DNA from: Alphaproteobacteria bacterium
GTDB taxonomy: Bacteria > Pseudomonadota > Alphaproteobacteria > UBA2966
Reading direction: 5' to 3'
Assembly (NCBI GenBank): GCA_965242505.1
Contig: OZ251449.1
Location: forward strand, 2,803,843 to 2,867,842
Length of the DNA: 64,000 nt
The notes under the pieces: generated by a model
Databases searched by the model: none
The model's input: only the letters and a program-made list of their open reading frames with translations
What the model was told of the DNA's origin: nothing
Made by a program: the position numbers and the translations under genes
Part shown: positions 5,219 to 61,660 of the stretch, in pieces
How the letters are laid out: each line of letters opens with the position of its first letter
Numbering within the stretch: the stretch's first letter is position 1

Positions 5219-5271
5219 GGGGGCGAAGCTACACCGTCGCGGGGCTGTCCGCAAGCGCGCATCCATTGAGC

Positions 5272-6849: not shown

Positions 6850-6892
6850 GCCGCATTTCTCATACCGGCAGGGATCGGAGATTGCGCGGCGT

Positions 6893-7010: not shown

Positions 7011-7191
7011 TGCGCCGGGTGTGGCGAAAAAGCCACATTCCGTGTCGTTCTCGCCCGCGGCGCGCGGTTCCGCCGCCGAACCCGCGGATTCCCGTTGATT
7101 CGGCGGAACGGCGCGTGCTTACGTTGAAGGGCGCAAAGACGCGTCGTATGGTTTTTGGCCAAACAACCCTGTTGGTTACGGAGGATCACGA

Positions 7192-8289
7192 ATGAAAACG
7201 CACAAGAGCAGGCTTCTCGCCACCAGCGCTCTGGCGGGCGCCGGGATGGCGCTTCCGGGCGTCGCGGCGGCCGAGATGATGAAGCCGGCCCTCTCGGTGG
7301 GCGGCTACCTCTGGCACGACACCCACTTCGCCAGCCAGGACATGGACGAGAACAAGAGCTCCGTCCTGCACCATGTCGACTCCGAGGTCCACTTCAAGCT
7401 GGCCGGCGAGCTCGACAACGGCCTCAAGATCGGCGGGCGCATCGAGCTCGAGAGCCAGACCGGCGGCGACCAGATCGACGAGACCTGGCTCGACCTTTCG
7501 GGCGCGTGGGGGATGCTCAGGTTCGGGAACAAGAACTCCGGGCGCTACGTCCACAGCTGGTCGGCGACGGGCCCGAACGTGTCCCACGGCGTCACCTCGG
7601 GCGTGACGACGGAATGGCTGGTTCTCCCTGAGGGTGTCGGCGCTGGCCTCTTCTTCCGCAAGCCGCTCGGCTCGGCCCACCCCGACGTCTCGAACGACGA
7701 CCCGGCCCTCACCTACTTCACGCCGCGCTTCAACGGCTTCCAGATCTCGGTGACCCACCGCCCCGAAATCCAGAACACGGGCGGCAAGAACATCGGGACG
7801 AGCGGGTCGGACGACACGGCGAACTACACCAACGCGCTCGACGGCTCGGTCCAGTACTCCGGCGACGTGGGCGGCATGAAGGTCGCCCTCGTGCTCGGCG
7901 CGGGCTCGGCCGGCGGTCCGGACGGCGCGGAGGACTACCAGGTCGTCAACGGCGGCGCCAAGGTCACCGCCAGCGGCTTCAGCTTCGGCGGCCACATGGC
8001 CGACGTGGAAGACGACATGAACAACGCCACCGGCACGGCGTACAGCGTCGGCGCGAGCTACGGGCAGGGCCCGTGGGCGGTGAGCGCGACGTTCCACGAT
8101 GGCGAGGTCGACGGCACCGTCGCCGACCCCGACAGCAGCGAGTTGTCGGTGTGGGCCCTGGGCACGAAATACACCCTCGGTCCGGGCGTGCGCCTCCTGG
8201 CGTCGTACCAGAACGCGGAGGTGACCTCGGAGCTCGGCGGCAGCAACGAGGGTTCGGCATTCACCGCGGGCGTCGCGGTCAACTTCTGA
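7192..8289 (+). CDS. Outer-membrane porin (alphaproteobacterial general porin type), 365 aa
   Basis: GGAGG RBS 7 nt upstream. Signal peptide MKTHKSRLLATSALAGAGMALPGVAAA. Gly/Ser/Thr-rich amphipathic beta-strand composition and a C-terminal ...AGVAVNF ending in Phe. The strong hairpin terminator follows. Confidence 0.8.
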   Translation: MKTHKSRLLATSALAGAGMALPGVAAAEMMKPALSVGGYLWHDTHFASQDMDENKSSVLHHVDSEVHFKLAGELDNGLKIGGRIELESQTGGDQIDETWLDLSGAWGMLRFGNKNSGRYVHSWSATGPNVSHGVTSGVTTEWLVLPEGVGAGLFFRKPLGSAHPDVSNDDPALTYFTPRFNGFQISVTHRPEIQNTGGKNIGTSGSDDTANYTNALDGSVQYSGDVGGMKVALVLGAGSAGGPDGAEDYQVVNGGAKVTASGFSFGGHMADVEDDMNNATGTAYSVGASYGQGPWAVSATFHDGEVDGTVADPDSSELSVWALGTKYTLGPGVRLLASYQNAEVTSELGGSNEGSAFTAGVAVNF

Positions 8290-8291
8290 CC

Positions 8292-8347
8292 CGGCTTCCG
8301 GCGGAAGCCGCCAGGGGCGGGGGGCCATCCCCCGCCCCTTTTCTTTG
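8292..8347 (+). terminator. Rho-independent terminator of the porin gene
   Basis: Hairpin cggcttccg-g-cggaagccg, then ggggcgggggg-ccat-cccccgcccc followed by ttttctttg. Confidence 0.65.
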
Positions 8348-8496
8348 CCGCGCCGGCGCGGGCCGCCGTCCGGTCCACCGGCGGGCGCGACCGAATGGCA
8401 CCGTCGTATCCGCGGGGCTTGGCGCGGCGCGCGGGCCGCGGTAGTCTCCGGACCGGTGGAGATGGGCGAGACCTGCATTTCCCGGAAGAGTCCCTG

Positions 8497-8760
8497 ATGC
8501 CGACATATCTCATCGCCTTGAATGCGCCGGATTCCGCGGTGTGGAAACGAGTCGAGTCGGTTTGGCCCGACGACCATTTCCTTCTCACGGATTGCCTGGC
8601 ATTCGTGTCCGAGGATGATCCCAACCTTCTTACGCAGGACATCGCCGAAAACCTGGGGATGACCGCGGAGGGGAACGTTCTCGGCCTGGTGACGGAGGTG
8701 AAAGGCCTGGCGGGACGCAACTCCACGTCGTTTGCCGAGTGGTTGAGTAAACGCTCATGA
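8497..8760 (+). CDS. Small acidic hypothetical protein (87 aa); first gene of a low-GC two-gene cassette
   Basis: MPTYLIALNAPDSAVWKRVESVWPDDHFLL... GGAAGAG lies upstream. Local GC is about 55-58% against about 70% for the flanks. The stop overlaps the next start (ATGA). Confidence 0.5.
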   Translation: MPTYLIALNAPDSAVWKRVESVWPDDHFLLTDCLAFVSEDDPNLLTQDIAENLGMTAEGNVLGLVTEVKGLAGRNSTSFAEWLSKRS

Positions 8761-9071
8761 GCGACCGCAGCGAAAACGTGGTGGATCTGGAAAAGAATCC
8801 CAGGAATCTCCAAGGGTCAGGCAGTGGCGGCGGGAACGGAAACCTCACACGGCACAGGCTGAACGACCTGGAACGCCGCATGGAGAAGCTGGAAAGCAAG
8901 GTGGATGATCTGATCGGTCTTTGCGCCAGGATCGACGAGAAACTGAATGAAGTCGCGAGCAAGAGTTACGTCTTGCGGATCCTGTGCGTAACCGTAGTGG
9001 TAACCATAGGGGGTTCACTCGCGACCGTCATCGTCCATGCCATCATGAGAACCTTGGTCCCTGTTTCCTGA
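8757..9071 (+). CDS. Tail-anchored coiled-coil membrane protein (104 aa; N-terminal coiled coil and C-terminal TM, XhlA/holin-accessory-like architecture)
   Basis: ..LTRHRLNDLERRMEKLESKVDDLIGLCARIDEKLNEVASKSYVLRILCVTVVVTIGGSLATVIVHAIM. Same low-GC islet, translationally coupled to the upstream gene. The family assignment is architectural only. Confidence 0.45.
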   Translation: MSDRSENVVDLEKNPRNLQGSGSGGGNGNLTRHRLNDLERRMEKLESKVDDLIGLCARIDEKLNEVASKSYVLRILCVTVVVTIGGSLATVIVHAIMRTLVPVS

Positions 9072-9258
9072 ACCCGTTCATCCATGAAAGCCCGCCGGGG
9101 TGGAGGATTTTCGCGGCGCTCCCGACCGGAACGTCATGGCGGCGGTTCCCCGGCCGGCGTCGGCGTCGGCGGGCGCGATCATGGTGCCGGCGCGGGCCGA
9201 AACGGCTTCCCGTTCGCGCGGAAATCCGGTAGCGTCCCGGCCTGAAGGGAGAGCCGCC

Positions 9259-9630
9259 ATGGACGAATACCAGGCCGCCACGCTTGCGATCCGGACCTAC
9301 GCCCTCTGGGCCGCCTACGGACAGGTCGCCGCCACCCTCGTGATCGGCAGCGGCCAGATCGCCGTCGTCTTGTACGGCATCCGCGCCATGATCCGCGCCA
9401 ACAGGGAACGCGCCGTCATCCTCGACCAACAGCATCAGGCCGACGACAAGCGCCACGAGGAGGCCATGGCCGAGGGGGCCCGCCGCCACGAGGAGGCCAT
9501 GGCGGCGCTCGCCGAACTGGTCCGGGACGGCCGGCGCCAGACCGCCGCCCTCGACGAATCGATCCGGGCCAGCCAACGCCAGACCGCGGCCCTCGACGAA
9601 CTGCTCCGCCGCTCCGCGCCCGCCGAGTGA
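9259..9630 (+). CDS. Small membrane protein (123 aa): N-terminal TM helix plus a cytoplasmic coiled coil with internal duplications (HEEAMA x2, RQTAALDE x2)
   Basis: AAGGGAGAgccgcc-ATG RBS. MDEYQAATLAIRTYALWAAYGQVAATLVIGSGQIAVVLYGIRAMI... The upstream part of the track ORF has no RBS. Confidence 0.5.
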   Translation: MDEYQAATLAIRTYALWAAYGQVAATLVIGSGQIAVVLYGIRAMIRANRERAVILDQQHQADDKRHEEAMAEGARRHEEAMAALAELVRDGRRQTAALDESIRASQRQTAALDELLRRSAPAE

Positions 9631-9654
9631 CGCTCCGAAGCGAAGGCGGGGGCG

Positions 9655-9720
9655 GTCCGCCCCCCTCCCGACCTCCCCCCTGTTAGGGGGAGGAGTATTG
9701 GGTGGTCAGGGGGGAGAGGC
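9655..9720. repeat. REP-like element (type A variant, ctcccccctgttagggggaggag)
   Basis: cccccctcccgacctcccccctgttagggggaggagtattgggtggtcaggggggagagg. Confidence 0.6.
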
Positions 9721-32556: not shown

Positions 32557-33342
32557 ATGCCGTCCCGTGGAGCCCGTCGGAGCGACATGCAGGATCCACC
32601 CGTTGCCGGCTTCGCGCGGCATCCCGGAATCGCGGCGGAAGACGAGGCGCTGCTGGCCGGCGTTCCGCTGTTCTCGGGGATCCCGCGCGACTCCCTGCGG
32701 GCGCTGCTCGCCGACGCCCGGGTCTGCCGCCGTCCGCGCCACGCCGTGCTGTTCCTGCAAGGGGAGCCCGCCGGGCGCTTCTACGTCGTGCTGGACGGGT
32801 GGGTGAAGTTGTTCCGCTCGACGCCGGACGGACAGGAGACGGTCATCGCCGCGATCGCGCGCGGCGAATCCTTCGCCGAAGCCGCGAGTTTCGCCGAAGG
32901 GGTCTTCCCCGTCGGGGCGCAGGTCGCCGAGGCGGCGCGCCTGCTGGTCGTTCCCGCGCTCTCGTTCACCGACCAGTTGAAGCGAAACCCGGCGTTGGCG
33001 ATCAACATGCTGGCCGGGATGTCCCGCCATCTGCGCGGCCTGGTGGAGGAAATCGAACAGCGGACCGTCAAGTCCGCCGCGCAGCGGCTCGGCGCGTTCC
33101 TGCTGAAACGGTGCCCCGACGGACGCGAGGCGGCCGTGATCGACCTTCCCACCGACAAGAGTCTGGTCGCGGCGCGTCTGGGAATGCGTCCGGAAACGCT
33201 CTCGCGCGCGCTCGGGAAACTCCGGGCGGTCGGAGTGTCCACCCGCGACCGCCGGGTCGCGGTCTCCGACGTCGGCGCGCTGCGCCGCTACGCCGAAGAC
33301 GGGCCCGACGGCGCCGACCGACCGCGCTCCCTCCCGTCTTGA
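32557..33342 (+). CDS. Crp/Fnr-family transcriptional regulator (NnrR/Dnr-like; cNMP-binding fold plus C-terminal HTH), about 250-261 aa
   Basis: ..LFLQGEPAGRFYVVLDGWVKLFRSTPDGQETVIAAIARGESFAEAA.. is the effector domain. ..LPTDKSLVAARLGMRPETLSRALGKLRAVGV.. is the HTH. It sits directly upstream of the NO reductase. An alternative start is at M11. Confidence 0.8.
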   Translation: MPSRGARRSDMQDPPVAGFARHPGIAAEDEALLAGVPLFSGIPRDSLRALLADARVCRRPRHAVLFLQGEPAGRFYVVLDGWVKLFRSTPDGQETVIAAIARGESFAEAASFAEGVFPVGAQVAEAARLLVVPALSFTDQLKRNPALAINMLAGMSRHLRGLVEEIEQRTVKSAAQRLGAFLLKRCPDGREAAVIDLPTDKSLVAARLGMRPETLSRALGKLRAVGVSTRDRRVAVSDVGALRRYAEDGPDGADRPRSLPS

Positions 33343-33352
33343 CCACGATCAA
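33339..33352 (+). promoter_or_regulatory. FNR/NnrR-type box TTGAC-N4-ATCAA upstream of the NO reductase gene
   Basis: ttgaccacgatcaa is a near-perfect dyad matching the FNR/Dnr/NnrR consensus TTGAT-N4-ATCAA. It lies about 55-70 bp upstream of the norZ ATG and overlaps the regulator's stop codon. Confidence 0.6.
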
Positions 33353-33407
33353 GGCGAGGACGCGACCGCGGGTCTACGAAACCGGGACGGACCCAGGGAG
33401 GCGCGTC

Positions 33408-35699
33408 ATGACCTACCGCGAAGTCTTCACGCTCAAGAGGCTCTGGATTTCGTTCGGCGCCTTGCTCGCCGTGACGTTCGGAGTCCTGCTGCTGGTCGGC
33501 GGACGAGCGTTCCAGGAAGCGCCGCCCCTGCCGGCGACGGTGGCGGTGGTGGACGGCGGGACGTCCTCCACGCTGTTCGACGCCGACGACATCCACGACG
33601 GGCGCGACGTCTGGCGCCGCCTGGGCGGCATGCAGCTGGGGTCGGTGTGGGGGCACGGAGGCTATCTGGCGCCCGACTGGACGGCCGACGCGCTGCATCG
33701 CGAAGCGCTGGCCATGCTCGACGCGGACGGCGACTTCGCCGCGCTCTCTCCCCCGGACCGGGCGGCGCGGATCGCGGCCCTCGCCGCGCGCATCCGCGTC
33801 AACACCTACGACGCCGAGAGCGGGCGGATCGCGATCTCGCCGGATCGCGCGCGGGCCATCGAAGCGGTCGTGGCCCATTACACGGCGTTGTTCGGCGGAA
33901 CCGGCGACGGCCCCGAGGCGGCGGCCCTGCGCGAGGCCTACGCGATTCCGGAACGGCCGCTCGGCCCCCGGCCCGACGCCGAGATTCGCAAGCTCGTCGC
34001 CTGGTGGTGGTGGACGGCCTGGGCGGCGGTGACGCTGCGTCCCGACGACGGCGTCACCTACACCAACAACTGGCCGCACGAGCCGCTGGTCGGCAACCGG
34101 CCGAGCGCCGCGACGTTCGTCTGGACGTTCGTGTCGGTGGTCCTGCTGATCGCCGCGACGGGCGCGCTGTGCTGGTTCTTCCTGCGCGAACGCGACGAAT
34201 GGCGAAAGGACACCGAGCCTCCGGCGGGCTATCCGGAGGCCAACCCGATCGACGCGGCGCGCCCCACCGCTTCGATGCGGGGCGTGATCAAGTACATCTG
34301 GATCGTCGCCGTTCTGCTCACCCTCCAGATCGCCTGCGGAGCGGCGACCGCGCACTTCGCCGTCGAAGGCCAGGACTTCTACGGCCTGCCGTTGTCCGAG
34401 ATCGCCCCCTACGCGCTGACCCGCACGTGGCACGTGCAGCTCGCGGTGCTGTGGATCGCGACCGCGTGGCTCGGCGCGGGGCTCTATCTCGCGCCGATGA
34501 TCGCGGGGTTCGAACCGCGCTGGCAGCGGCTCGGCGTGGACGCGCTGTGGGCGGCGCTCGTCATCGCCGTTCTGGGCTCCCTGTCCGGCGAGTGGCTCGT
34601 CCTGACCGGACGCATGACCGATCCGACGCTGGTCTACTGGTTCGGGCATCAGGGCTACGAGTTCCTCGACATGGGACGCTTCTGGCAGGCGCTGATCTTC
34701 GTCGGCCTGCTCTTCTGGCTGGTCCTGATGACGCGCTGCCTCGCGCCCGCCATCCGCAAGGCGGGCGAGGATCGGCACCTGCTCATCCTGCTTCTGCTTT
34801 CCTCGGCCGGCATCGCCGTGCTGTTCGGAGCCGGGTTCCTCTACGAAAGGGACACCCACCTCACGATCGCCGAATACTGGCGGTGGTGGGTCGTGCATCT
34901 GTGGGTGGAGGGCGTGTTCGAGGTGTTCGCGACCGCGTGGGTGGCGTGGGCCTTCGTGCACATGCGGCTGCTGCGGCCCTCGGCGGCCGCGGTCTACACC
35001 ATGTTCTCGGCGATGATCTTCCTCGGCGGCGGAGTTCTCGGAACCTTCCACCACCTGTATTTCGCCGGAATGCCGGAATCGGTGCTGGCGCTCGGCGCGG
35101 TGTTTTCGGCCCTCGAGGTCGTGCCGCTGGCGCTGATCGCCTTCGAGGCTCACGACCATTGGCGGGCGGAACGAAAGGCGCCCTGGACGCGCCGCTACCA
35201 CATGCCGCTGATGTTCTTCCTGGCGGTCGCGTTCTGGAACCTGGTCGGCGCGGGGGTGCTCGGTTTCCTGATCAACCCGCCGTTGTCGCTCTACTACCTG
35301 CAGGGGCTGCTGACCACCCCGGCGCACGGCCATGCGGCGCTGTTCGGGGTGTACGGCATGCTCGGCATCGGCCTCCTCCTGCTGTGCCGCCGCGACCTGC
35401 CGCAGGCCGCGGGGGCATGGTCCGACCGGACCCTGCGGTGGGTGTTCTGGCTGTTCAACGGCGGGCTCGCCCTGATGGTCTTCGGTTCGCTGCTGCCGCA
35501 GGGCATCATCCAGGCGCTGGTCTCGTTCGACCGGGGTTACTGGCACGCGCGCGCGCCCGACCTCCTGCATTCGCCGCTCATGGAGACGCTGGTCTGGCTG
35601 CGCGTGCCGGGCGACGTCGTGTTCGCGCTCGGAGCGCTGCTGCTGCTCGTCTTCCTGGCGCGGATCGAGTTCGGGCCGCGCGCGGCGCGCGACTCCTGA
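33408..35699 (+). CDS. norZ: Nitric-oxide reductase, quinol-dependent single-subunit type (qNOR large subunit with N-terminal extension), 763 aa
   Basis: AGGGAGG RBS. ..GSVWGHGGYLAPDWTAD.. is the N-terminal periplasmic extension typical of qNOR. 12 or more TM helices with conserved His ligands (..WVVHLWVEGVFEVFA.., ..GTFHHLYFAG.., ..HGHAALFGVYG..). The symbol follows common usage for qNOR genes (norZ/norB). Confidence 0.9.
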   Translation: MTYREVFTLKRLWISFGALLAVTFGVLLLVGGRAFQEAPPLPATVAVVDGGTSSTLFDADDIHDGRDVWRRLGGMQLGSVWGHGGYLAPDWTADALHREALAMLDADGDFAALSPPDRAARIAALAARIRVNTYDAESGRIAISPDRARAIEAVVAHYTALFGGTGDGPEAAALREAYAIPERPLGPRPDAEIRKLVAWWWWTAWAAVTLRPDDGVTYTNNWPHEPLVGNRPSAATFVWTFVSVVLLIAATGALCWFFLRERDEWRKDTEPPAGYPEANPIDAARPTASMRGVIKYIWIVAVLLTLQIACGAATAHFAVEGQDFYGLPLSEIAPYALTRTWHVQLAVLWIATAWLGAGLYLAPMIAGFEPRWQRLGVDALWAALVIAVLGSLSGEWLVLTGRMTDPTLVYWFGHQGYEFLDMGRFWQALIFVGLLFWLVLMTRCLAPAIRKAGEDRHLLILLLLSSAGIAVLFGAGFLYERDTHLTIAEYWRWWVVHLWVEGVFEVFATAWVAWAFVHMRLLRPSAAAVYTMFSAMIFLGGGVLGTFHHLYFAGMPESVLALGAVFSALEVVPLALIAFEAHDHWRAERKAPWTRRYHMPLMFFLAVAFWNLVGAGVLGFLINPPLSLYYLQGLLTTPAHGHAALFGVYGMLGIGLLLLCRRDLPQAAGAWSDRTLRWVFWLFNGGLALMVFGSLLPQGIIQALVSFDRGYWHARAPDLLHSPLMETLVWLRVPGDVVFALGALLLLVFLARIEFGPRAARDS

Positions 35700-43388: not shown

Positions 43389-43984
43389 GCGCCGCCGTCA
43401 GGGACCTTGGCGACCTCGGGTCTTCGCACCCCGACGACTTTCCCACGCTTCGGGCGGTGGCGCGGTTCGCGCGAGCGGCGCCGCACGTGTCCTGGTTCCT
43501 GCGCCTCGGCGAGCCGTTGACGGAAGAGGTCCGCCGGACCGGCGATTCCTACGTCCACGCCCTGGGATTTCCCAGTTGCGCGGTCGCCGCCATCGGCGAC
43601 TGGGAAGAGGCCGCGGCCGCGGCCGAGGATTCCGGCTTCGACGAGCCCTCGTGGGACGCCGAGGAGCAGCTCACCGCGGGGCTCATGGACGAAGCCCTCG
43701 CCGTCGTCGAGCGGGAGGAGCTGGCGGCCGCGCTGGCGCACGTCTCGGCGGCCGCGGGCGTCGCCGCGAAGCTGGCGATAGAGGAGGCGGCCGCGCGCGC
43801 CGGGCATTCCGACCCCGCGCTTCTCGACGCGGCTGCGGGCGCCGCGACGAAAGCCTGTTATCAGGCGGCCCTGCTGCTGGCCGGCGGCGGAGACGAGGAT
43901 CACGCCGTGGCTTTCAAGTACCGGCTGTTCGAGAGCGGCCGCTGGCCCCTCGGCGTCATCGGCGGCACCTTCAACATATTCTGA
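43385..43984 (+). CDS. Hypothetical protein (199 aa), translationally coupled (ATGA) to the upstream GATase gene
   Basis: MSAAVRDLGDLGSSHPDDFPTLRAVARFARAAPHVSWFLRLGEPL.. No motif recognised. Codon usage is consistent with its neighbours. Confidence 0.5.
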   Translation: MSAAVRDLGDLGSSHPDDFPTLRAVARFARAAPHVSWFLRLGEPLTEEVRRTGDSYVHALGFPSCAVAAIGDWEEAAAAAEDSGFDEPSWDAEEQLTAGLMDEALAVVEREELAAALAHVSAAAGVAAKLAIEEAAARAGHSDPALLDAAAGAATKACYQAALLLAGGGDEDHAVAFKYRLFESGRWPLGVIGGTFNIF

Positions 43985-44031: not shown

Positions 44032-44478
44032 TCAGGAACCGAGCGTCCGGGTCAACTGGCCGGTCGTCCTCTCGAGGCGGGTCGCGAGCTCGCGCATGAT
44101 TTCGACCGCCATCCGCGGGAATTCCTCCACCATGCGGAAGAACAGTTCCTTGGAAATCTTCAGGACCTCGACGTCCCGGTCCGCGACCACCGTGGCCGTC
44201 CGCGGGACGTCGCAGAGAATGGCGATCTCGCCCACGATGTCGTTCTCCCGCGCCTCGGCGACCCTCGCGTCGCCGTTGGGCGTCGAGACCATGATCCCGA
44301 CGGAACCCTCGATGATGATGTAGGCGGAATCGCCCACGTCGCCCTGGCGGCAAAGCTCGGCGCCCTTCCTGAAGGTCAGGCGTTCGCTCGCGAAAGCCAG
44401 GAGCTTGAGCTTCGACGGCTCGATGTTCGAGAACAGCGGAATCCGCCGCAGAAGATCGACCTCCTCGTTCAGGCTCAT
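44032..44478 (-). CDS. Stand-alone cyclic-nucleotide-binding domain protein (148 aa)
   Basis: ..IPLFSNIEPSKLKLLAFASERLTFRKGAELCRQGDVGDSAYIIIEGSVGI.. is the cNMP-binding beta-roll with the GE..FGEIAIL-type phosphate-binding cassette (..VGEIAILCDVPRTATVVA..). It is 17 bp downstream of, and co-oriented with, the ABC gene. Confidence 0.75.
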   Translation of the reverse strand: MSLNEEVDLLRRIPLFSNIEPSKLKLLAFASERLTFRKGAELCRQGDVGDSAYIIIEGSVGIMVSTPNGDARVAEARENDIVGEIAILCDVPRTATVVADRDVEVLKISKELFFRMVEEFPRMAVEIMRELATRLERTTGQLTRTLGS

Positions 44479-44495
44479 CGTTTCCGTCCCGTCGG

Positions 44496-47153
44496 CTATC
44501 GAGCGCTGTCGAGCAGCCGCCTGAAATGCGACCCGTCCCGGTCGAGCTCCTCGAACGCGCCCTCCTCCACGATCCTTCCCGACCGCATCACGAGCACGCG
44601 ATCGAACCCCTTCGCCAGATCCGCCTTGTGCAGCGCCCAGATCAACCCGCGACCGGCGAACTCTTCAAGCAGGTTGCCCATTATCAGCCCCTGACTCGCG
44701 GTGTCCAGCGCGGCCGTCGCCTCCGCGAGGAACAGTATGTCGGGCCGCTTCAGAACGCTGCGCGCGATCGCGAGTTTCTGCCGCTGTCCCGATGACAGCC
44801 GCGAACCGGATACGCCGACGTCATACCCCAATCCGACCTCGACGATCGTGTTCCTGAGGCCGAGTTCCGAGATGACCTCCGTGATCAGCGCGCCGACGCG
44901 GTCCGCGGCCTCGGGCCGTCCGTAGGCGATCTTCCCGAAAAGGATGTTGTCCTGAATGCTCGCCGTGCTCGCGTAGGCGTCGGGGTCCAGGAATTCGACG
45001 GAGGTTCCGATTTCCTCGGGAAGGTTCCTGGCGAACGCCTCGCGGGCGTCCAGCAGCCTGGCCTGAACGTCGTCGTCGATCATGCCCAGGCGGTGCCGCG
45101 CGGGAACGAGCTTGAACGGCAGCGACATGATCGGGGCGCGCTCCTCGACCGACAGGTCCTCCAGCCTCTCTCGGTCGACTCGCGTGAGCCACTGCTGGAG
45201 CTCGCCCAGCTCCTCCGCCGATACGAAGCTGTACCGCTGGAACAGTTCGTGGTCGGGTGGCACGTCGGCGAAAATTTCGACCATGGTGGCGGCCGTGTCG
45301 TACCCGATCCGCAGGATGGCCTCCGTCAGGCCGACCCTTTTCAGAATTTCCAGGACGTACGGATCCTCGCCGAGCCGGTTCATGTCGAAGGCGTCTCCGA
45401 CGACGTTGCCGAACAGAAGGTTCTCCCCGACGGTCGCGTTGGCGTTGTAGGCGGACCGGTCGAACGCTTCGACCAGGTCCGCCATGCCCTCCTCGTCGAC
45501 CAGGCGTTCACGGAATGCCGCGCGGGCGCGAAGAATCGCGTCCGCCGTGTCGCCGTGCGTCTCGGGATCGATGGTTCCCCGGAGTCCCAGCCGGTACACC
45601 TCGTCGTCCAGACCCACCATTTCGAGGACGCGAAGCCCCTGCGCCCGGAGGGCTTCGGGCGTGTCGGCGCCGGCGGACTCCATGTCCATCCAGTCCGCCT
45701 TGACGTCGAGGGTCGTGTTGCCGGCGGCCCGCGCCTCGTTCTCGTGCCAGCGGCGTTGGCGCATGGCGTCGTCGTCGTACTCGAACTCGCGCACGGGACG
45801 GTGCTTCAGGCCGTAGAACAGGTTGGAGCCCAGAGAACCGGCGAAGACGTACCCCTGCTGGCCTACGTAGGCGAGCCGACGCCCCGTGATCGCCTCCGGC
45901 AGACCCGCGAGCTCCAGTCCGCCGATCGAGACGCCTCCTCGCGTCGGATACAGGAGCCGGCTCAGCAGCTGCGCCAGATCGGTCGCGCCGCTTCCGGACT
46001 CGCCGACGACGGCGACTCGCGACGGCATCGACAGCCTCAGCGAAACACGGTCGACGACGTTCTCCCCGACTTCGTCGGTCAGCGTCAGGTTGGCGGTCGC
46101 CAGGTCGCCGGTCAGCGGATCGATGGACTCCGGTTCCTCCGTCTGCACGCTCTCGTCCGGCATCCCGACCGGGTCGAACTGACTGACGACCTGTTCGTAC
46201 TTGATCTTCGCGTCCTCCCGCCTCTGGTAGAACGCGAGGAGTTCCTTCCAGGGCGCCCCCAGGTCCTTGTGCGCCGCGATCGCGGCGACCAGCGTCCCCA
46301 TTTCCAGAGATCCGACGATGACGAGGTAACCGCCCAACGAATAGAAGAAGAACGGTCCGAGCTGCTGGATGAAGTTGTTGATGAACTTGATGACGAACTT
46401 CTGGCGGTAGATGCGATACCGCACATGGAAGATTCGTCCCAGCCGATCGGAGAAATCGGCCAGCGCGAACCGCGACGTGTCGTGGATGTGGACCTCGGGA
46501 GCTCCCTGGACCGTCTCGCCGATACGGTCCGACAGGCGGCGCACCAGACGCACCCTTTCCTTGCCCAAGGCGTTCACGCGCTTTTGCATGCGCGGGATCA
46601 GGTACAGCTGGATGGGGTAGAGCGCGACGGCCGCCGCCGCCATGATCCAGTTCTGGTAGAACAGGAACGCCAGGATGACGATGAGCGTGCCTCCCTGGAA
46701 CACCGGCAGCGCGAAGGCCTCGCCGATGAATCCGCCCAGAGGCTCCACCTCCGAGGTGATCATCGGAATGATCTCGCCCTGGGACACGTTCCTGAAGGTC
46801 GGCTGCGGGAAGCGGAGCACCCGGCCGAACAGTTGATACCGCAGCCGACGCAGCATCCGCTCGCCGGTCAGGCCCTGGTAGACGTTGATGTAGTATTTGA
46901 ATGCCTGGTTTATCAGGACGAGGATCAGAAAGACCGCGCACAGGAGGAACAGGTAGCCGGTCCGGTCGAACTCGACCCCCAGAAGGCCGACGGGGAAGTC
47001 TTCCGGGTTCCCCTGGATCGCGCCGTTTATGATGCGCTTCGGCAGCTCGTAGAAGGCGTACAGGAAGGGGAACGACAGGGCGGCGAGGGCGGTGAGCCAG
47101 ACCTGTTGCCGCAGACTGTGGCGAATCAGGTATCTGTAGACGGTTTTTTCCAT
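44496..47153 (-). CDS. ABC-type protein with N-terminal 6-TM permease domain and a long, non-canonical nucleotide-binding domain (885 aa)
   Basis: TMD about residues 1-330. The Walker A-like VAVVGESGSGATDL lacks the invariant Lys (GSGAT rather than GKS/T). The signature LSSGQRQKLAIARSV is present. The Walker B-like ILFLAEATAALD has Asp replaced by Ala. About 400 aa are inserted between Walker A and the signature motif. The start was taken at MEKTVYRYLIRH; the first 40 aa of the track ORF are Arg-rich. Confidence 0.75.
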   Translation of the reverse strand: MEKTVYRYLIRHSLRQQVWLTALAALSFPFLYAFYELPKRIINGAIQGNPEDFPVGLLGVEFDRTGYLFLLCAVFLILVLINQAFKYYINVYQGLTGERMLRRLRYQLFGRVLRFPQPTFRNVSQGEIIPMITSEVEPLGGFIGEAFALPVFQGGTLIVILAFLFYQNWIMAAAAVALYPIQLYLIPRMQKRVNALGKERVRLVRRLSDRIGETVQGAPEVHIHDTSRFALADFSDRLGRIFHVRYRIYRQKFVIKFINNFIQQLGPFFFYSLGGYLVIVGSLEMGTLVAAIAAHKDLGAPWKELLAFYQRREDAKIKYEQVVSQFDPVGMPDESVQTEEPESIDPLTGDLATANLTLTDEVGENVVDRVSLRLSMPSRVAVVGESGSGATDLAQLLSRLLYPTRGGVSIGGLELAGLPEAITGRRLAYVGQQGYVFAGSLGSNLFYGLKHRPVREFEYDDDAMRQRRWHENEARAAGNTTLDVKADWMDMESAGADTPEALRAQGLRVLEMVGLDDEVYRLGLRGTIDPETHGDTADAILRARAAFRERLVDEEGMADLVEAFDRSAYNANATVGENLLFGNVVGDAFDMNRLGEDPYVLEILKRVGLTEAILRIGYDTAATMVEIFADVPPDHELFQRYSFVSAEELGELQQWLTRVDRERLEDLSVEERAPIMSLPFKLVPARHRLGMIDDDVQARLLDAREAFARNLPEEIGTSVEFLDPDAYASTASIQDNILFGKIAYGRPEAADRVGALITEVISELGLRNTIVEVGLGYDVGVSGSRLSSGQRQKLAIARSVLKRPDILFLAEATAALDTASQGLIMGNLLEEFAGRGLIWALHKADLAKGFDRVLVMRSGRIVEEGAFEELDRDGSHFRRLLDSAR

Positions 47154-47341
47154 GTGACCCGCACGTCGCCGGATAGCGAACCGGAGGACGATCCCGGACG
47201 CCGGAATCGCCGGCCCGGGAGTTTTCGGCGCTCCCCGCCTTCGACCGTGCCGGAAAACGCGGGGCCAAGGCAACCCGGAAAGTTGGCGCGCGGCGCAATC
47301 CGCGCTTTCTCGCCGGCGATCCGTATGCGAGAGTCGCCGCC

Positions 47342-48604
47342 ATGTCGCGGGGAACCCACGATCCCGTGATGGCTTCGCGAGCCGGTCGTGGCGCCCGGGT
47401 GTTGATTTACAGCCACGACACCTTCGGGCTGGGCCATCTACGCCGCTGTCGGACGATCGCCCACTCGCTGGTCGAGACCCGCGAGGATCTGTCCGTACTG
47501 ATATTGTCCGGTTCGCCCATCCTCGGCAGTTTCGATTTCCGGCGCCGCGTGGATTTCGTTCGCGTGCCGGGCGTCATCAAGCTGCGCAACGGAGAATACA
47601 CGTCGCTCAATCTCCAGTTGCAACTGGAGGAGACCCTCTCGATGCGGTCCTCCATCATCAAGCACACCGCCGACATTTTCGATCCCGACGTGCTCATCGT
47701 GGACAAGGAGCCGTTGGGGCTGCGCGGAGAGATGCAGGGCGCCCTGGAAATGCTGCGCGCCCGAGGGAAGCGCCTCGTGCTCGGATTGCGGGACGTGCTT
47801 GACGACCCGGACACCCTGTCCGTCGAGTGGGAACGCAAGAACGCCCTTCCCGCGCTCGAGGAGTTCTACGACGAGATCTGGGTCTACGGCTTGCCGCAGA
47901 TGTGCGAGCCCCTGGAGGGTCTGCCGCTGACCGAGGACATGCGGCGCAAGGTCACCTATACGGGCTACCTGCCGATCGTCGTTCCCGAGACCGCGTTCCC
48001 CGCCGAGGTCCCGGAGATCACCAACCGTCCGTTCCTGCTGGTCACGACGGGCGGCGGCGGAGACGGAGACGTCCTGATCGAGTGGGTGTTGCGCGCCTAC
48101 GAGTCGGAACGGATGCTGCCCTATCCGGCGCTGCTCGTCCTGGGACCGTTCCTTCAGCCGGAAAAGCAATTGCAGTTCATGGCGCGCGCCGCCAGGCTCG
48201 ATGCCGTCGAGGCGATCGTCTTCAACCCGTGTATCGAGCGGCTCGAAGAAAATGCGGCGGGGATCGTCGCCATGGGAGGATACAACACCTTCTGCGAGAT
48301 CCTGTCGCTCGACAAGCGGGCGGTCGTCGTTCCCCGGACGGCGCCGCGTCGGGAACAGTCGATCCGAACGTCCCGGGCGCAGGAACTCGGCCTCGTGCGC
48401 ATGCTCGAGGACGACGGTCGCATGGACCCGGAGGAGATGGCCCAAGCGTTGCGGGACCTGCCGCGCCAGCCGAAGCCTTCGGAAACGATCGTGCCCGGTT
48501 TGCTGGAAGGACTGATCAACGTGAACCGGTTGATCGGTCCCTGGCTCGATCGCCGGCCGACGCCCGAAATGGGGAATATCGTTACGGCGCTTCGCCCCAC
48601 CTGA
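47342..48604 (+). CDS. Glycosyltransferase (GT-B fold, MGT/UDP-glycosyltransferase-like), 420 aa, divergent from the ABC gene
   Basis: ..RVLIYSHDTFGLGHLRRCRTIAHSL.. (N-terminal GT-B domain), ..LLVTTGGGGDGDVL.., ..VAMGGYNTFCEILSLDKRAVVVPR.. (nucleotide-sugar binding C-domain). Confidence 0.75.
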   Translation: MSRGTHDPVMASRAGRGARVLIYSHDTFGLGHLRRCRTIAHSLVETREDLSVLILSGSPILGSFDFRRRVDFVRVPGVIKLRNGEYTSLNLQLQLEETLSMRSSIIKHTADIFDPDVLIVDKEPLGLRGEMQGALEMLRARGKRLVLGLRDVLDDPDTLSVEWERKNALPALEEFYDEIWVYGLPQMCEPLEGLPLTEDMRRKVTYTGYLPIVVPETAFPAEVPEITNRPFLLVTTGGGGDGDVLIEWVLRAYESERMLPYPALLVLGPFLQPEKQLQFMARAARLDAVEAIVFNPCIERLEENAAGIVAMGGYNTFCEILSLDKRAVVVPRTAPRREQSIRTSRAQELGLVRMLEDDGRMDPEEMAQALRDLPRQPKPSETIVPGLLEGLINVNRLIGPWLDRRPTPEMGNIVTALRPT

Positions 48605-48664: not shown

Positions 48665-48730
48665 GTTCGCGCTCCTCTCCCCTGGCCCGGCCCCCACCCC
48701 GACCCTCCCCCTGCCAGGGGGAGGGAGAAC
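48665..48730. repeat. REP-like element (type B variant)
   Basis: cccccaccccgaccctccccctgccagggggagggagaacgtaggggg. Confidence 0.65.
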
Positions 48731-49019
48731 GTAGGGGGACGGCTAACCCTGCCGCGCCTTGAATCGCCGGTTCGTCTTGTTGATCACGTACACGCGGCCG
48801 CGGCGGCGCACCACCCGGCAGTTGCGGTGCCGCTTCTTCGCGGTCTTCAGCGACTTGAGAACCTTCATGCGCTCACGGGGTCCCGGCGGCGTCCAAGTGG
48901 GCGCGATACATAGGCCGGGACGGCGGGGCCTGTCAAGTTCACGTCCTCGTTCGATACGTCATGAGGCGCCGCGCGCCCCGAGGGGAACGCGGCGGACCAT
49001 TCCGCCCGGACGGGCGGCT

Positions 49020-51602
49020 TCAGTTCGACGGCGCCGTCACGCGGCACTCCTCCGCCTGGCAGGCGCCGAAGCTGCCGAACGCGGCCACACGCCGGTTCTG
49101 GTGGGTGGAGTCCGTCTCGATGCGCCACCAGCCGGCGGTTTCGAGCTTGTCCGCGGGACCGTAGAGGGCGCCGCCGTACTCGCCCTTGTTCCACGACGTA
49201 TCCCACGGGTCCGCATGGCCCGTGTAGCTGCCGTCGGCTGCGATGTCGCCCTCCGCCAACAGGATCGCGAACCCTTCATGGGAATGGCCATCCCCTCCGT
49301 TTCTGAGGAACTGGTTCTTCTGCCAGATGCCGTTTTCGAGCGCTTGCAGGTTGGCGACGTTACCCATGATCTTGTTGGCGCCGGTGGGAATGCCTTCGCC
49401 CGTGCAGGCGCCGGCGCCGATGCAGGCGTTGAGGGTCACGTCGCCCCGCAGGCGGGCGAAGTGGAGGACGTGCGGCGCGCTTTCGCTGCCCACCGAATTG
49501 CTCCTGGGATGCAGGATCATCCCCATGGTCCTGCCCCGGAACGTGGCCTCGATCGAGGTCGCGCGGTCGGTCGTCTTCGCGTCGTCCGCGTCGCGGAAGG
49601 CGTCGTAGCCGAAGTGGAAGCCCTGCAAGAGGCCCGGCCGGGGATACTCGTCGATGTAGTCGGTGTACATGAACAGGCCGTAGGCCGCATAGGACAGGTA
49701 ACGGTCGGCGTCGTCGCCCGCATCGTCCGCATCCGCGCCCGCGTCGAGGCCGCCATGGTTCGACAGCCAGACCCGGAGGTCGCCCAGCGCGCCATGGGCG
49801 GCGAGGCGGCGGCCGTCGCTGTCTTCGGGGTCGGGCTGGGGCTGGTTTCCGCTCAACCCGTAGCGCGAGGCCCAGTAGTAGTTGGGTTCGCCGTCGGGGT
49901 CGGCGTAGGGCGCGCCCCAGGAGATCTCCGCGTCGCTGCGGTTGAAGTCGTAGCAATACGCCGGATAGGCCCCGCTGCAATCGTCCGACATCACGTTGTT
50001 CCCGGAGTCCTGCGTCCCCCAGGCGCCCGGCGAGTTGATCCCGTCCCGGCCCCGGCTCGACGACCTGTCGAGGTCGTGCTTGAAGAGGCTCATGACGGCG
50101 CCTTCCCCGCCGGTCCTGAAGACCATGCCGTCGGGCGTGAAGCGGACCGAGCTGGTCACCGGATTCAGGTAATGGCGTTGGTAGCTACCCGACGGGGTGA
50201 TGGCGTTGCCGTCGGTGTCGGTCGTCGCGCCCTGGACGACCGGGATCTTCGGCGTGGCGCCGCCTTCGTCGTCGGTGGCGCCTTCGGGGCTGGGCCTGAT
50301 GTCGCCGCGCATGGAGACCGCCCGCAGCGGGAAGTGATCGCTCTCGCCCGTCGCGGCGGGCGAGAGCACCGTCTTGCCGGCGGCCCAGGCGACCGCCTCC
50401 GTCTGGATGTCCAGTCCGTTCGGGTTCGGGCAGGGCATGTTCACGGTGCAGTCGGCGAACGCCGCCTCCCTGGGCGTGAGCGTGACCCGCGCGGTGAAGG
50501 GCGCGCCCCCCGTCTGTCCGGGGGGGACCTGGTTCAGGATCGAGGGAGGGGCCGCCAACCCGGGGTCGGCGGCGATGCGGGTGGCGGCCCAGGCGCGCGT
50601 CGCGGTCTCGGCCGCCATCGCCGCCGCCGCCCCTGCGTCGGCCTCCGTCCGCTGGTCGTCCGTGGCCGCCGCGGCCAGAGCCGAGGCGGCAGCCGTTGCG
50701 AGCGCCGCCGCGGCCGTCCTCTCCGCCTCGCGCGCATTCACGAAGGCCGTCTGCGCGGCCGCCAGCGCCGTCTGCGCCGCCTGTCTCCGCGTCTGGGCGG
50801 CCTCGCGGTCCGCCGTTTTCCGTTCGTCCGTGGTGTCGCCGTCCCAGGCCGCGGCGGTCGCCTGGAAGTCCGCCTCCGCCTTCTCCAGGGCCGCCTGGGC
50901 CGCCGCCAGCGCCGTCCCGGCCTGCCCGGTCGCGGCCTGCGCCGCCGTCAAACCGGTCTGCGCCGAACGCAACGCCTCCTCCTCCGCTGTCGGAGTCGGC
51001 GGCTCCGGCGCCGCCGGCGGTCGCGCTCGCGCTTCGGCCAGTTCCTCGCGCAGCAGCGGCACCAGGGAGACTTGAGCGGTGGTCAGCAAGCCCTGGGCCT
51101 GCAACAGCACGGTTTCGACCGCGTCGGTGGGGTTGGCCTCCAGCGCCGCGGTTATCTGGGTCTGGGCGGCGTCCAGCGCCGCCTGCGCCTGGTCCAGCGA
51201 CGTGTGCGCGCTGTCGAAGGAAACGGTCCCCCCCGACCCGAACGCCGTATTGGTCGTATCCAGGGCCGCGATGACCGCCCCCAAGGCGTTGTCGACCACC
51301 ATCAGCACCGTGCGGACATTCTCCGGCAGCTGCGGCAGATTATCCCGGAGATTATCCCGGCCCTCGTTCAGCTTCTCGCGGGCTTCCGGGCGCCGTTCGG
51401 GGTTGGTGGCCGCCGCCAGCGAGTCGCGAAGGTCCGCCAGCGCGGTTTCGGCGGCTGCCGTCTTCTGCCTCTCGGCCTCGAGGGTGTCCTCGCCGATGCG
51501 CACCGTCCTGGTTTCGGTGCAGGCGCCCAGCGCCAGAGCCATGCCGCAAATCAACACCGCCGTAAGTCTGGAGATCGTCATCGAACGGGAACCCCCCCTC
51601 AT
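49020..51602 (-). CDS. Large surface-type lipoprotein (about 853-860 aa): signal/lipobox, Ala-rich coiled-coil N-terminal half, C-terminal TbpB/fHbp-like beta-barrel domain
   Basis: (MRGGSRS)MTISRLTAVLICGMALALGAC has the lipobox LGAC. Residues about 30-330 are Ala/Gln/Thr-rich helical repeats. The C-terminal about 250 aa (..GFAILLAEGDIAADGSYTGHADPW..YGGALYGPADKLETAGWWRIE..AAFGSFGA) resemble the 8-strand barrel or handle of TbpB/HpuA/fHbp-type surface lipoproteins (family recalled from memory). A 958-aa antisense shadow ORF lies opposite. Confidence 0.7.
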   Translation of the reverse strand: MRGGSRSMTISRLTAVLICGMALALGACTETRTVRIGEDTLEAERQKTAAAETALADLRDSLAAATNPERRPEAREKLNEGRDNLRDNLPQLPENVRTVLMVVDNALGAVIAALDTTNTAFGSGGTVSFDSAHTSLDQAQAALDAAQTQITAALEANPTDAVETVLLQAQGLLTTAQVSLVPLLREELAEARARPPAAPEPPTPTAEEEALRSAQTGLTAAQAATGQAGTALAAAQAALEKAEADFQATAAAWDGDTTDERKTADREAAQTRRQAAQTALAAAQTAFVNAREAERTAAAALATAAASALAAAATDDQRTEADAGAAAAMAAETATRAWAATRIAADPGLAAPPSILNQVPPGQTGGAPFTARVTLTPREAAFADCTVNMPCPNPNGLDIQTEAVAWAAGKTVLSPAATGESDHFPLRAVSMRGDIRPSPEGATDDEGGATPKIPVVQGATTDTDGNAITPSGSYQRHYLNPVTSSVRFTPDGMVFRTGGEGAVMSLFKHDLDRSSSRGRDGINSPGAWGTQDSGNNVMSDDCSGAYPAYCYDFNRSDAEISWGAPYADPDGEPNYYWASRYGLSGNQPQPDPEDSDGRRLAAHGALGDLRVWLSNHGGLDAGADADDAGDDADRYLSYAAYGLFMYTDYIDEYPRPGLLQGFHFGYDAFRDADDAKTTDRATSIEATFRGRTMGMILHPRSNSVGSESAPHVLHFARLRGDVTLNACIGAGACTGEGIPTGANKIMGNVANLQALENGIWQKNQFLRNGGDGHSHEGFAILLAEGDIAADGSYTGHADPWDTSWNKGEYGGALYGPADKLETAGWWRIETDSTHQNRRVAAFGSFGACQAEECRVTAPSN

Positions 51603-54299: not shown

Positions 54300-54770
54300 C
54301 TCCGTTGGGGGGCGGGTTCGGCGCGCCGATCCGCACACTTCGCACACCTTCCGGGACCTCGTTCTCCCTCTCCTGTTCTCCCTCTCCCTTCCAATCCGCA
54401 CACCTCGCACACCGGCAGGGACCCCCCTCCCGACCTCCCCCCTGCCAGGGGGGAGGAGTTTGAAAGGGGATCCGCACACTCCGCACACCCTCCCGTCCTT
54501 TTTATTTCTCCCTCTCCCTTGCAGGGGGAGGGTCGGGGTGGGGGTCACCGGCGTTGCGGCGGGGCGCGTCCATCCGGACCCCCCTCCCGACCTCCCCCCT
54601 GTCAGGGGGGAGGAGTATGGATGGGCAGGGGGAGAAGTGTGGATGGGCAGGGGGGAGGAGTTTGAAAGGGGATCCGCACACTCCGCACACCCTCCCGTCC
54701 CTTTTATTTCTCCCTCCCCCTGGCAGGGGGAGGGTCGGGGTGGGGGTCGCGCCGATCCGCACACTCCGCA
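54300..54770. repeat. Cluster of 7 or more REP-like elements (types A and B), including a duplicated block of about 170 bp
   Basis: tctccctctcccttcc..., cccctcccgacctcccccctgccaggggggaggagtttgaaaggggatccgcacactccgcacaccctcccgtcc...ccctctcccttgcagggggagggtcggggtgggggtc; the block at 54400-54560 recurs at 54590-54760. Confidence 0.75.
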
Positions 54771-60519: not shown

Positions 60520-61660
60520 CGTATGCGCTCCTCTCCCCTGCCGTGACCCCCACCCCGACCCTCCCCCTGCAAGGGAGAGGGAGAACAAGAGGGGACGGGA
60601 AAGGGCCATTGACGCTCCTCCCCCCCTGACCATCCATACTCCTCCCCCCTGACAGGGGGGAGGTCGGGAGGGGGGTCCGCGGCCCCGCAACGCCGTTCGC
60701 GCTCCGCTCCCCTGGCGTGACCCCCACCCCGACCCTCCCCCTGCAAGGGGGAGGGAGAAGAAGGGGGGACGCGGAGGGAGCCGTCGACGCTCCTCCCCCC
60801 TGACAGGGGGGAGGTCGGGAGGGGGGTCCGCGGCCCCGCAACGCCGTTCGCGCTCCGCTCCCCTGGCGCGACCCCCACCCCGACCCTCCCCCTGCAAGGG
60901 GGAGGGAGAACGTAAGGGGACGCGGAGGGAGCCGTCGACGCTCCTCCCCCCTGACCATCCATGCTCCATCCCCCCCTGCCCCCCTGACCATCCATACTCC
61001 TCCCCCCTGACAGGGGGGAGGTCGGGAGGGGGGTCCGCGGCCCCGCAACGCCGCCGTTCGCGCTCCGCTCCTCTGGCGTGACCCCCACCCCGACCCTCCC
61101 CCTGCAAGGGAGAGGGAGAACAAGAGGGGACGGGAAAGGGCCATTGACGCTCCTCCCCCCTGACCATCCATGCTCCATCCCCCCTGACCATCCATACTCC
61201 TCCCCCCTGACAGGGGGGAGGTCGGGAGGGGGGTCCGCGGCCCCGCAACGCCGCCGTTCGCGCTCCGCTCCCCTGGCGCGACCCCCACCCCGACCCTCCC
61301 CCTGCAAGGGAGAGGGAGAACAAGAGGGGACGGGAGGAGGGCGGACCGCGGCCCCGCAACGCCGTTCGCGCTCCGCTCCCCTGGCGGGACCCCCACCCCG
61401 GCCCTCCCCCTGCAAGGGAGAGGGAGAACAAGAGGGGACGGGAGGGGGGTGGACGCGGCCCGCAACGCCGTTCGCGCTCCGCTCCTCTGGCGTGACCCCC
61501 ACCCCGGCCCTCCCCCTGCAAGGGAGAGGGAGAAGAAGGGGGGAGGTCGGGAGGGGGGTGGACGCGATCCTGCAACGCCGTTCGCGCTCCGCTCCCCTGG
61601 CGTGACCCCCACCCCGACCCTCCCCCTGCAAGGGGGAGGGAGAACGTAAGGGGATGGAGG
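60520..61660. repeat. About 1.1-kb tandem array of 7 or more composite REP/BIME-like units (each about 110-210 bp, holding one type B and one type A palindrome plus a conserved linker ccgcggccccgcaacgccgttcgcgctccgctcccctggcg)
   Basis: The units start at about 60523, 60675, 60826, 61039, 61237, 61348, 61448 and 61570. Some carry an extra insert, ctgaccatccatgctccatcccccctgaccatccatactcc. No unique spacers are present. Confidence 0.85.

Follow-up and report, generated by a model that had tools for sequence, protein, structure and literature searches.

Exporters of the ATP-binding cassette (ABC) type have ATP-powered nucleotide-binding domains (NBDs) as their defining feature, and the locus dealt with here, located at positions 44032–48604 of a 64-kb stretch of alphaproteobacterial DNA (contig OZ251449.1; the whole 64,000 nucleotides (nt) are referred to as the window), encodes a protein of this exporter fold in which the hallmarks of the ATP site have drifted, along with a small cyclic-nucleotide-binding (CNB) protein and, divergently transcribed, a probable glycosyltransferase (GT). 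The same half-transporter architecture (a transmembrane domain, TMD, followed by an NBD) and the same fold are seen in the homodimeric type IV exporters of the MsbA, HepA and NdvA groups, and both MsbA and the HepA family export lipid-linked or polysaccharide substrates. The window protein, however, differs from these in having a degenerate ATP site, an NBD insertion of about 270 amino acids (aa) and an obligate CNB partner, and its best NCBIfam scores (219 bits for MsbA against a cut-off of 602, and 188 bits for HepA against a cut-off of 725) stay far below the equivalog level.

Other uses of the exporter scaffold are also known: the ABCC proteins CFTR and SUR reuse it as a gated channel and a channel regulator, respectively, the NBDs gating or regulating instead of pumping, with CFTR being under cyclic-nucleotide control via PKA, and SbmA/BacA is an instance of the ABC-exporter membrane fold working without ATP hydrolysis. 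The likeness to CFTR and SUR is, however, a functional analogy with no specific sequence relationship, these proteins keeping one competent ATP site and being regulated by R-domain phosphorylation rather than by a bound CNB subunit, whereas SbmA/BacA lacks an NBD altogether and belongs to other Pfam families than the window protein, which matches PF00664 and retains the whole NBD in a degenerate form.

In bacteria, the two halves of heterodimeric exporters such as TM287/288, TmrAB, BmrCD and CydDC come from genes that lie side by side. Exporters of this kind pair a degenerate site with a consensus one and keep the Walker A Lys, whereas the single gene found here would make both sites degenerate, with the Walker A Lys, the Walker B Asp, the A-loop aromatic and the H-loop His being commonly lost. 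A non-canonical nucleotide site, thought to be structural or regulatory, is likewise present in TM287/288, TmrAB, BmrCD and Rv1273c/72c, and degenerate sites are known from heterodimers or full transporters, where they stand beside a consensus site (PMC7756269). HetC and the CNB-containing peptidase exporters are ABC exporters whose function depends on a domain of the cNMP-binding type, HetC having an N-terminal CNB and a C39 peptidase domain as well as an essential catalytic ATPase residue (PMC10986499); in the module described here, by contrast, the CNB is C-terminal or separate, there is no peptidase domain, the ATPase is degenerate, and the HetC-type models are matched below their cut-offs (TIGR03797 with 144.7 bits against 709.4, TIGR03896, the model of the accessory protein, with 37.1 bits against 161).

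What emerges from the analyses below is a membrane protein family with drifted ATP-site hallmarks, in which the TMD, the NBD insertion and the CNB sensor are kept under selection. The composite reading that we lean towards, tentatively, is that of a cyclic-nucleotide-regulated "pseudo-ABC" membrane module tied to a glycoconjugate pathway. Should this be true, the ABC exporter scaffold would be reusable as a ligand-regulated device, bacterial cyclic AMP (cAMP) and cyclic GMP (cGMP) signalling would have a direct membrane target (to our knowledge, few non-transcriptional cAMP/cGMP effectors are known in bacteria), and an uncharacterised, very widespread alphaproteobacterial GT operon would stand under second-messenger control, the complete module of a named species, Ferrovibrio terrae (locus L022, GCA_943371255.1), making the idea directly testable. 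A first-pass annotation of the window had taken the module for an undescribed one, and so it appears: none of the genes of the module or of the GT operon has a curated equivalog in NCBIfam, and no description of the family or of the gene arrangement was found in the literature (CNB-linked ABC, doubly degenerate ABC, COG4671).

Degeneracy of the ATP Site in the Window Protein and across Its Family

The features of the module, with their strand in brackets, are:

44032..44478 (-), CNB protein gene, 148 aa, PF00027
44479..44495 (-), ABC-to-CNB spacer, 17 nt, sequence CCGACGGGACGGAAACG
44496..47153 (-), ABC-exporter-fold gene, 885 aa, stop codon included in the coordinates, PF00664 and a split PF00005
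46164..47153 (-), transmembrane domain, six helices, residues 1–330, from PF00664 and the model
45981..46004 (-), degenerate Walker A GESGSGAT, residues 384–391, read from the sequence
44964..45779 (-), all-helical NBD insertion of about 270 aa, residues 459–730, in the helical subdomain of the NBD
44784..44798 (-), signature LSSGQ, residues 786–790, read from the sequence
44721..44738 (-), degenerate Walker B ILFLAE, residues 806–811, read from the sequence
47154..47341, divergent ABC/GT intergenic region, 188 nt
47342..48604 (+), probable GT-B glycosyltransferase gene, 420 aa, divergent from the ABC gene

The Walker A motif of the window protein reads GESGSGAT instead of the canonical G-x-x-G-x-G-K-S/T, with Ala390 replacing the Lys, and its Walker B motif reads ILFLAE instead of hhhhD-E, with Ala810 replacing the Asp and the catalytic Glu811 being kept; the A-loop aromatic is gone as well, Asp360 being found at the aligned position (as judged by an alignment to the canonical pattern, not by structure). 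The signature (LSSGQ at residue 786), the Q-loop (VGQQ at residues 430–433) and the H-loop His (His842) are all present. These motifs had been read as GESGSGAT, FLAEAT and LSSGQ in the first-pass annotation, a correct reading that puts them at residues 384–391, 806–811 and 786–790, whereas the NBD insertion, put at about 400 aa there, is actually about 270 aa long (residues 459–730), the 402 aa being the spacing between Walker A and the signature. Given the absence of the Walker A Lys, the Walker B Asp and the A-loop aromatic, normal ATP binding has probably been lost in the lineage of the window protein.

Relatives were gathered by using the insertion alone as the query against 1.84 billion cluster representatives (50% identity), and 74 full-length representatives were aligned with the window protein (75 sequences in total). 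As this alignment of distant members was built quickly (MAFFT, two-pass guide tree), individual motif calls for the most divergent sequences in the following counts are possibly one residue out: the Walker A Lys is kept in 33/75 (replaced by Arg in 15 and by Ala in 16), the Ser/Thr after it in 20/75 (replaced by Glu in 16 and by Asp in 15), the Walker B Asp in 19/75 (Asn being found in 38), the catalytic Glu in 25/75, the Q-loop Gln and the H-loop His in 7/75 each, and the second signature Gly in 9/75, with most members reading LSxAQ or diverging even further. The A-loop position is occupied by Asp/Glu in 60 of the 75 sequences (aromatic fraction of 0.01), only 3 of the 75 combine the Lys, the Ser/Thr, the Asp and the Glu, and all of the ATP-site hallmarks together are found in none (0/75). 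Degeneracy of the ATP site is a property of the whole family and not a one-off, and the loss of normal ATPase chemistry, first proposed for the window protein alone, is a sensible prediction.

The pattern of these replacements bears on whether the protein could still be a true ATP-driven exporter, its catalytic residues being unorthodox and its CNB subunit regulating it much as the CNB domain does in cyanobacterial HetC, which we consider quite improbable. Most members of the alphaproteobacterial clade pair a GSGK[E/D] Walker A with an hhhhSE Walker B (relatives P0020–P0120, residues 390–391 and 810), as if the hydroxyl and the carboxylate that serve as Mg ligands had traded places between the Walker A Ser/Thr and the Walker B Asp, and such an apparent role swap would favour an active exporter, as would the Glu811, Q-loop Gln, LSSGQ and His842 retained in the window protein and the precedent of HetC, a CNB-controlled ABC exporter (PMC10986499). 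The Walker A Lys, however, is missing in the window protein and in all of its relatives with at least 69% identity to it (the more distant ones mostly have GSGK[E/D]), nearly every member lacks the A-loop aromatic, the H-loop His is as rare as counted above, and the motif residues vary freely between lineages amid conserved surroundings, which argues for relaxed constraint on catalysis. Moreover, Walker A Lys-to-Ala and Walker B Asp-to-Asn changes, both of which are found in the family, abolish hydrolysis in ABC ATPases.

Conserved Fold, Insertion and Purifying Selection

The architecture of a type IV exporter half-transporter (a six-helix ABC_membrane domain followed by a domain of the ABC ATPase fold) is present in the window protein: PF00664 (ABC_membrane) is matched at residues 40–292 (E 1.3e-21) and PF00005 (ABC_tran) at E 3.4e-16, both above the gathering score, the latter as a split domain, of which the first part (residues 368–458) covers profile positions 2–80 of 137, and the remainder is recovered from about residue 730 onwards by NCBIfam models. 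An AlphaFold2 model based on 41 homologues (mean predicted local distance difference test score, pLDDT, of 81.8, and of about 90 for the NBD and the insertion) has six long helices at residues 5–46, 64–112, 153–176, 179–216, 227–280 and 285–325, which, together with the PF00664 match, agrees with the six-helix exporter-like N-terminal domain noted at first pass. The best structural matches of the model (Foldseek) are TmrAB, TM287/288, MsbA and HlyB, type IV ABC exporters with 13–16% identity, and, as modelled, the full exporter architecture with its coupling-helix regions is kept.

The TMD is the best-conserved region across the 75 representatives (mean column conservation of 0.55 vs. 0.42–0.45 elsewhere), having 59 positions that are at least 80% conserved, and the insertion has 26 such positions. 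The ratio of nonsynonymous to synonymous substitution rates (dN/dS), determined pairwise between the window ABC gene and three relatives for four regions, is 0.07–0.16 in the TMD, in both NBD parts and in the insertion. A conserved TMD and insertion and dN/dS values this low, when set beside the variable ATP-site motifs, indicate that the ABC protein works while specifically its catalytic residues escape constraint.

No Pfam family was found for the insertion alone (searched whole and as two halves, E ≤ 10), and it marks a large uncharacterised protein family, retrieving 855, 586 and 196 proteins among the 50%-identity cluster representatives at E-value limits of 1e-3, 1e-10 and 1e-30, respectively; full-length matches fall into two sizes, of either about 840–930 aa or about 1010–1206 aa. 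An N-[IL]-x-[FY]-G motif, the usual number of which is one, after the Q-loop, occurs three times in the window protein (residues 444, 578 and 736), with copies two and three holding the family-invariant residues N578, G582, N736 and G740, and hhalign comparisons of the three segments returned weak repeat signals (probabilities of 89% for a 36-column match and 58% for a 47-column match). The insertion is, tentatively, a probable partial triplication of the helical subdomain.

The CNB Protein as a Partner of the ABC Protein

The CNB protein has PF00027 only (residues 35–119, E 2.9e-22), with no DNA-binding or other domain, and its best PDB sequence matches are the CNB domains of PKG and PKA; it starts exactly 17 nt past the ABC stop codon, just as had been noted at first pass for a gene encoding only such a domain. 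Its phosphate-binding cassette is intact (GEIAILCDVPRTAT), with the Gly-Glu and the Arg-Ser/Thr that would make it ligand-competent by sequence, and the Gly-Glu ... Arg-Ser/Thr-Ala cassette is intact in 28 of the 31 partner or fused domains, so that the CNB sensor conserves its ligand site, in contrast to the ABC protein with its degenerate ATP site.

Gene neighbourhoods were inspected in the 64-kb window, in 22 annotated loci and in 80 metagenomic loci, the latter being the best 80 of 509 matches (47–82% identity), among which closer relatives are over-represented (L023–L102 denote the metagenomic set below, and other L numbers denote genome or contig loci). A CNB gene is found directly downstream and on the same strand in 73 of the 74 metagenomic loci having enough downstream sequence (with a median gap of 58 nt between the ABC and CNB matches), the single exception being L096, where other genes occupy the place, and the same arrangement is seen in every unfused genome or contig locus examined. 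In all of the long representatives scanned (9/9) the CNB is fused C-terminally, with two of the nine adding a GGDEF domain; a gammaproteobacterial locus (L007) has the same C-terminal fusion, and the fused length is seen in 21/75 representatives. The CNB protein is a true partner of the ABC protein, being obligately linked or fused to it, and the gene pairing reported at first pass from a single locus is upheld in other genomes.

A role of the CNB protein as a CRP/FNR transcription factor was considered and rejected, the protein being 148 aa long and having PF00027 only and no helix-turn-helix. The only other cNMP-domain gene in the window, at 32557–33342 (+), does encode a true Crp/Fnr regulator (cNMP_binding and HTH_Crp_2), which adjoins a quinol-type nitric oxide reductase (32799–35699 (+), NorB cytochrome c-like domain and COX1) and is unrelated to the module.

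The same neighbourhoods speak to the first-pass proposal that the protein is the inactive half of a heterodimeric ABC exporter with a competent partner encoded elsewhere in the genome. A search of the 64-kb window, of the 22 annotated loci and of the genes next to it in the 80 metagenomic loci, about 100 loci overall, turned up no second PF00664/PF00005 half-transporter, and bacterial heterodimeric exporters are, as stated above, adjacent gene pairs, which leaves this arrangement very doubtful, even though degenerate sites are normally tolerated only beside a consensus site (PMC7756269) and the LSSGQ kept in the clade of the window protein could complete the active site of a partner. The pattern of degeneracy would be an unusual one for such a half-transporter too, since typical degenerate sites retain the Walker A Lys.

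L014, L019 and L020 have a class III cyclase (PF00211) beside the module, and cyclase homologues are present in 5 of the 80 metagenomic loci (L041, L044, L062, L079 and L101), L062 and L079 of which also have the GT operon; no cyclase was found among the open reading frames (ORFs) scanned in the window. A class III-type cyclase beside a CNB-linked membrane protein, as seen in some of the distant family members, is reminiscent of the Pycsar anti-phage systems, under which interpretation an infection-induced cyclic nucleotide would turn the CNB-linked membrane protein into a membrane-damaging effector. Matches of the CNB protein to the CNB part of PycTIR models (65 bits, PADLOC) and of the cyclases beside distant members to PycC models (82–92 bits), as well as an Apyc1-like Lactamase_B gene near the module in L020, would fit a system of this kind; the matches are, however, at the domain level only, PADLOC comes without curated cut-offs, the window has no cyclase, and a large ABC fold takes the place of the 2–4 helices seen in Pycsar. 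The module lies, moreover, in a FtsK–LolA–peptidase C26 setting that is syntenic in relatives from 94% down to about 48% identity and is a conserved housekeeping position, and this, the steady purifying selection and the conserved link to the GT operon are all untypical of defence islands, making an anti-phage role extremely improbable.

As for the genes following the CNB gene, a small Methyltransf_17 gene is found there in 46 of the 67 informative loci (downstream sequences of L023–L102) and is absent in the window and its closest relatives, which have an opposite-strand 197-aa ORF with no Pfam match (43391–43984 in the window) in its place. In L019 (positions 5030–9700), a distant family member, the ABC–CNB–cyclase operon runs on into genes for a phosphatidylserine decarboxylase and two CDP-alcohol phosphatidyltransferases, and these phospholipid synthesis genes hint that in that branch the role concerns lipids rather than glycans.

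The Glycosyltransferase and Its Operon

The 420-aa protein encoded divergently from the ABC gene, across a 188-nt spacer, is probably a GT-B glycosyltransferase, as had been suggested at first pass, with matches to PF04101 (19.9 bits, E 8e-4, cut-off of 22) and TIGR00661 (31 bits, cut-off of 195.9) that lie below the respective cut-offs. Its top 120 homologues are 67–94% identical to it, many of them with a precomputed PF04101 match, and its sequence contains the stretches GGGGDG (residue 237) and GGYNTFCE (residue 312). The family is very widespread and its source label is only "predicted glycosyltransferase".

A GT orthologue is divergent from and adjacent to the ABC gene in 40 of the 53 loci with enough upstream sequence, and 46 of these 53 informative loci have at least one GT-operon gene; conservation of the GT also equals or exceeds that of the ABC protein (69% vs. 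61% in L011, and 64% vs. 53% in L005). Distant branches, on the other hand, are without any GT, the module being found there beside class III cyclases or beside nothing recognisable, so that the link to the GT, read as part of the module at first pass, holds within one clade and is not universal.

In relatives, including Ferrovibrio terrae, the operon comprises the window-type GT, two enzymes of glycosyltransferase family 4 (GT4), a histidine phosphatase, a second enzyme resembling glycosyltransferase family 28 (GT28-like), a deacetylase-like protein and a small two-helix membrane protein, after which it overlaps, by stop and start codons, with genes for a yejF-like importer ATPase and a binding protein. 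No recognisable polymerase, flippase or initiating phosphoglycosyl transferase is encoded in it. In L011, L012, L016, L021 and L022, the operon runs into this yejF-like double-NBD ATPase and an SBP_bac_5 binding protein, and in L020, a family member without GTs, the module adjoins the same yejF-like importer, with permease genes following. The import of muropeptides by a transporter of the YejBEF type has been reported for Agrobacterium (10.1101/2022.07.15.499691).

Of the seven-gene GT operon retained in a 94%-identical relative (L001), just the first gene is left in the window; none of the remaining operon genes (the two GT4 enzymes, the histidine phosphatase, the second GT28-like enzyme, the deacetylase-like protein and the two-helix membrane protein) was found in the 64-kb window.

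The content of the operon is relevant to whether the ABC protein transports anything at all, as it could possibly, although we rather doubt it, be a non-transporting scaffold or receptor, i.e., a membrane platform (cf. SUR in KATP channels) relaying cyclic-nucleotide status to the GTs here and to cyclases or GGDEF domains elsewhere. The degenerate ATP site, the lack of a recognisable polymerase, flippase or initiating phosphoglycosyl transferase in the operon, and the GGDEF fusions (2/9 long representatives) and flanking cyclases, which resemble signalling architectures, would be in keeping with such a platform; the TMD being the most conserved part of the protein, with its 59 positions conserved in at least 80% of the sequences, seems to go beyond the needs of a simple anchor, however, and a platform would hardly account for the complete exporter architecture being kept, coupling-helix regions included.

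A Putative Mechanism

In the cyclic-nucleotide-regulated pseudo-ABC module that we tentatively favour, the ABC and CNB genes would be co-transcribed and their products would form one membrane module. The ABC protein would be a homodimer of the type IV exporter fold, the NBD of which is without hydrolysis chemistry and has gained the conserved helical insertion of about 270 aa, and the CNB protein would be a small cyclic-nucleotide receptor acting as its subunit. cAMP or cGMP made by class III cyclases, which are encoded beside the module in some lineages, would bind to the receptor, and the liganded receptor would then act on the NBD and the insertion, thereby setting the conformation of the conserved membrane domain, so that the NBD would be a regulatory transducer rather than a motor. 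In the alphaproteobacterial clade of the window, the likely output would be control over the passage (export or flipping) or the membrane assembly of the glycoconjugate made by the GT operon. That the ABC and CNB proteins touch, which ligand is bound, that ATPase activity has been lost, and what passes through the membrane domain and in which direction we infer, like function in general throughout this work, from sequence, predicted structure and gene neighbourhood.

A more specific proposal, and an unlikely one in our estimation, is that of an ATP-independent conduit of the ABC fold (a channel, a facilitator or a scramblase of lipid-linked glycans) gated by a second messenger, where cyclic-nucleotide binding to the CNB, relayed via the triplicated insertion, would replace the ATP-driven closure of the NBDs.

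Several observations weigh against the favoured mechanism. A Lys or Arg is present at the Walker A position in 48 of the 75 sequences, and many have an acidic residue after the Walker B position, which means that some nucleotide binding or slow hydrolysis may persist, and the catalytic Glu, the Q-loop Gln, the LSSGQ signature and the H-loop His retained in the window protein are odd for a fully dead site. With the other operon genes missing from the window, the glycoconjugate pathway may lack some of its steps or may lie at another place in the genome, and the lack of a GT link in L014, L015, L017, L019, L020, L040, L080, L081 and L097 implies that a glycan role may be neither ancestral nor general. 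The CNB protein could also have a ligand different from cAMP and cGMP; in vitro binding of ppGpp has been reported for HetC's CNB domain (PMC10986499).

Gene Boundaries and Surroundings

The ABC gene was taken to start at an ATG (MEKTVY...), resulting in a protein of 885 aa; an upstream TTG would give 925 aa, and the ATG was preferred because homologues of 883–885 aa share its initial residues (lengths among the 120 best homologues range from 874 to 926 aa, most being 883–885 aa). Hundreds of full-length homologues and the dN/dS values of the ABC gene indicate that the three window genes are real and not chance ORFs. The spacer CCGACGGGACGGAAACG, with the ABC stop codon (TAG) on one side and the CNB start codon (ATG) on the other, is purine-rich and resembles a ribosome-binding site, and a terminator scan found no terminator-like site between the two genes. 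In the 188-nt divergent region, a promoter scan found no consensus sigma-70 promoter, and an alignment with L001, L002, L003 and L008 revealed some blocks conserved with close relatives and no recognisable CRP/FNR-type palindrome; the divergent regions of L001 and L008 contain extra inserted DNA.

On the other side of the GT gene, homology with L001 stops at about position 48616, just past the GT stop codon (compare L001, positions 1–4258), and this break in synteny is either a rearrangement in the genome or an assembly join. The place of the missing operon genes is taken by rpmJ, the gene of an 860-aa lipoprotein and an SDR (short-chain dehydrogenase/reductase) gene. The first of these, at 48743–48868 (-), was recognised by eye, and we take it to be the ribosomal protein bL36 gene; the second, at 49020–51602 (-), encodes a predicted lipoprotein that matches no Pfam family and has a signal sequence ending in LALGAC and a long N-terminal region rich in Ala. 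A palindrome resembling repetitive extragenic palindromic (REP) elements, CTCCCCCTGC[A/C]AGGGGGAGGG, occurs at about 25 sites in the window (e.g., 48703–48725 and 54712–54734), with 39 strand matches at no more than two mismatches against 0 expected; one copy lies just downstream of the GT gene, near the synteny break, and at least eight are found in 60564–61640 at a spacing of about 100–200 nt.

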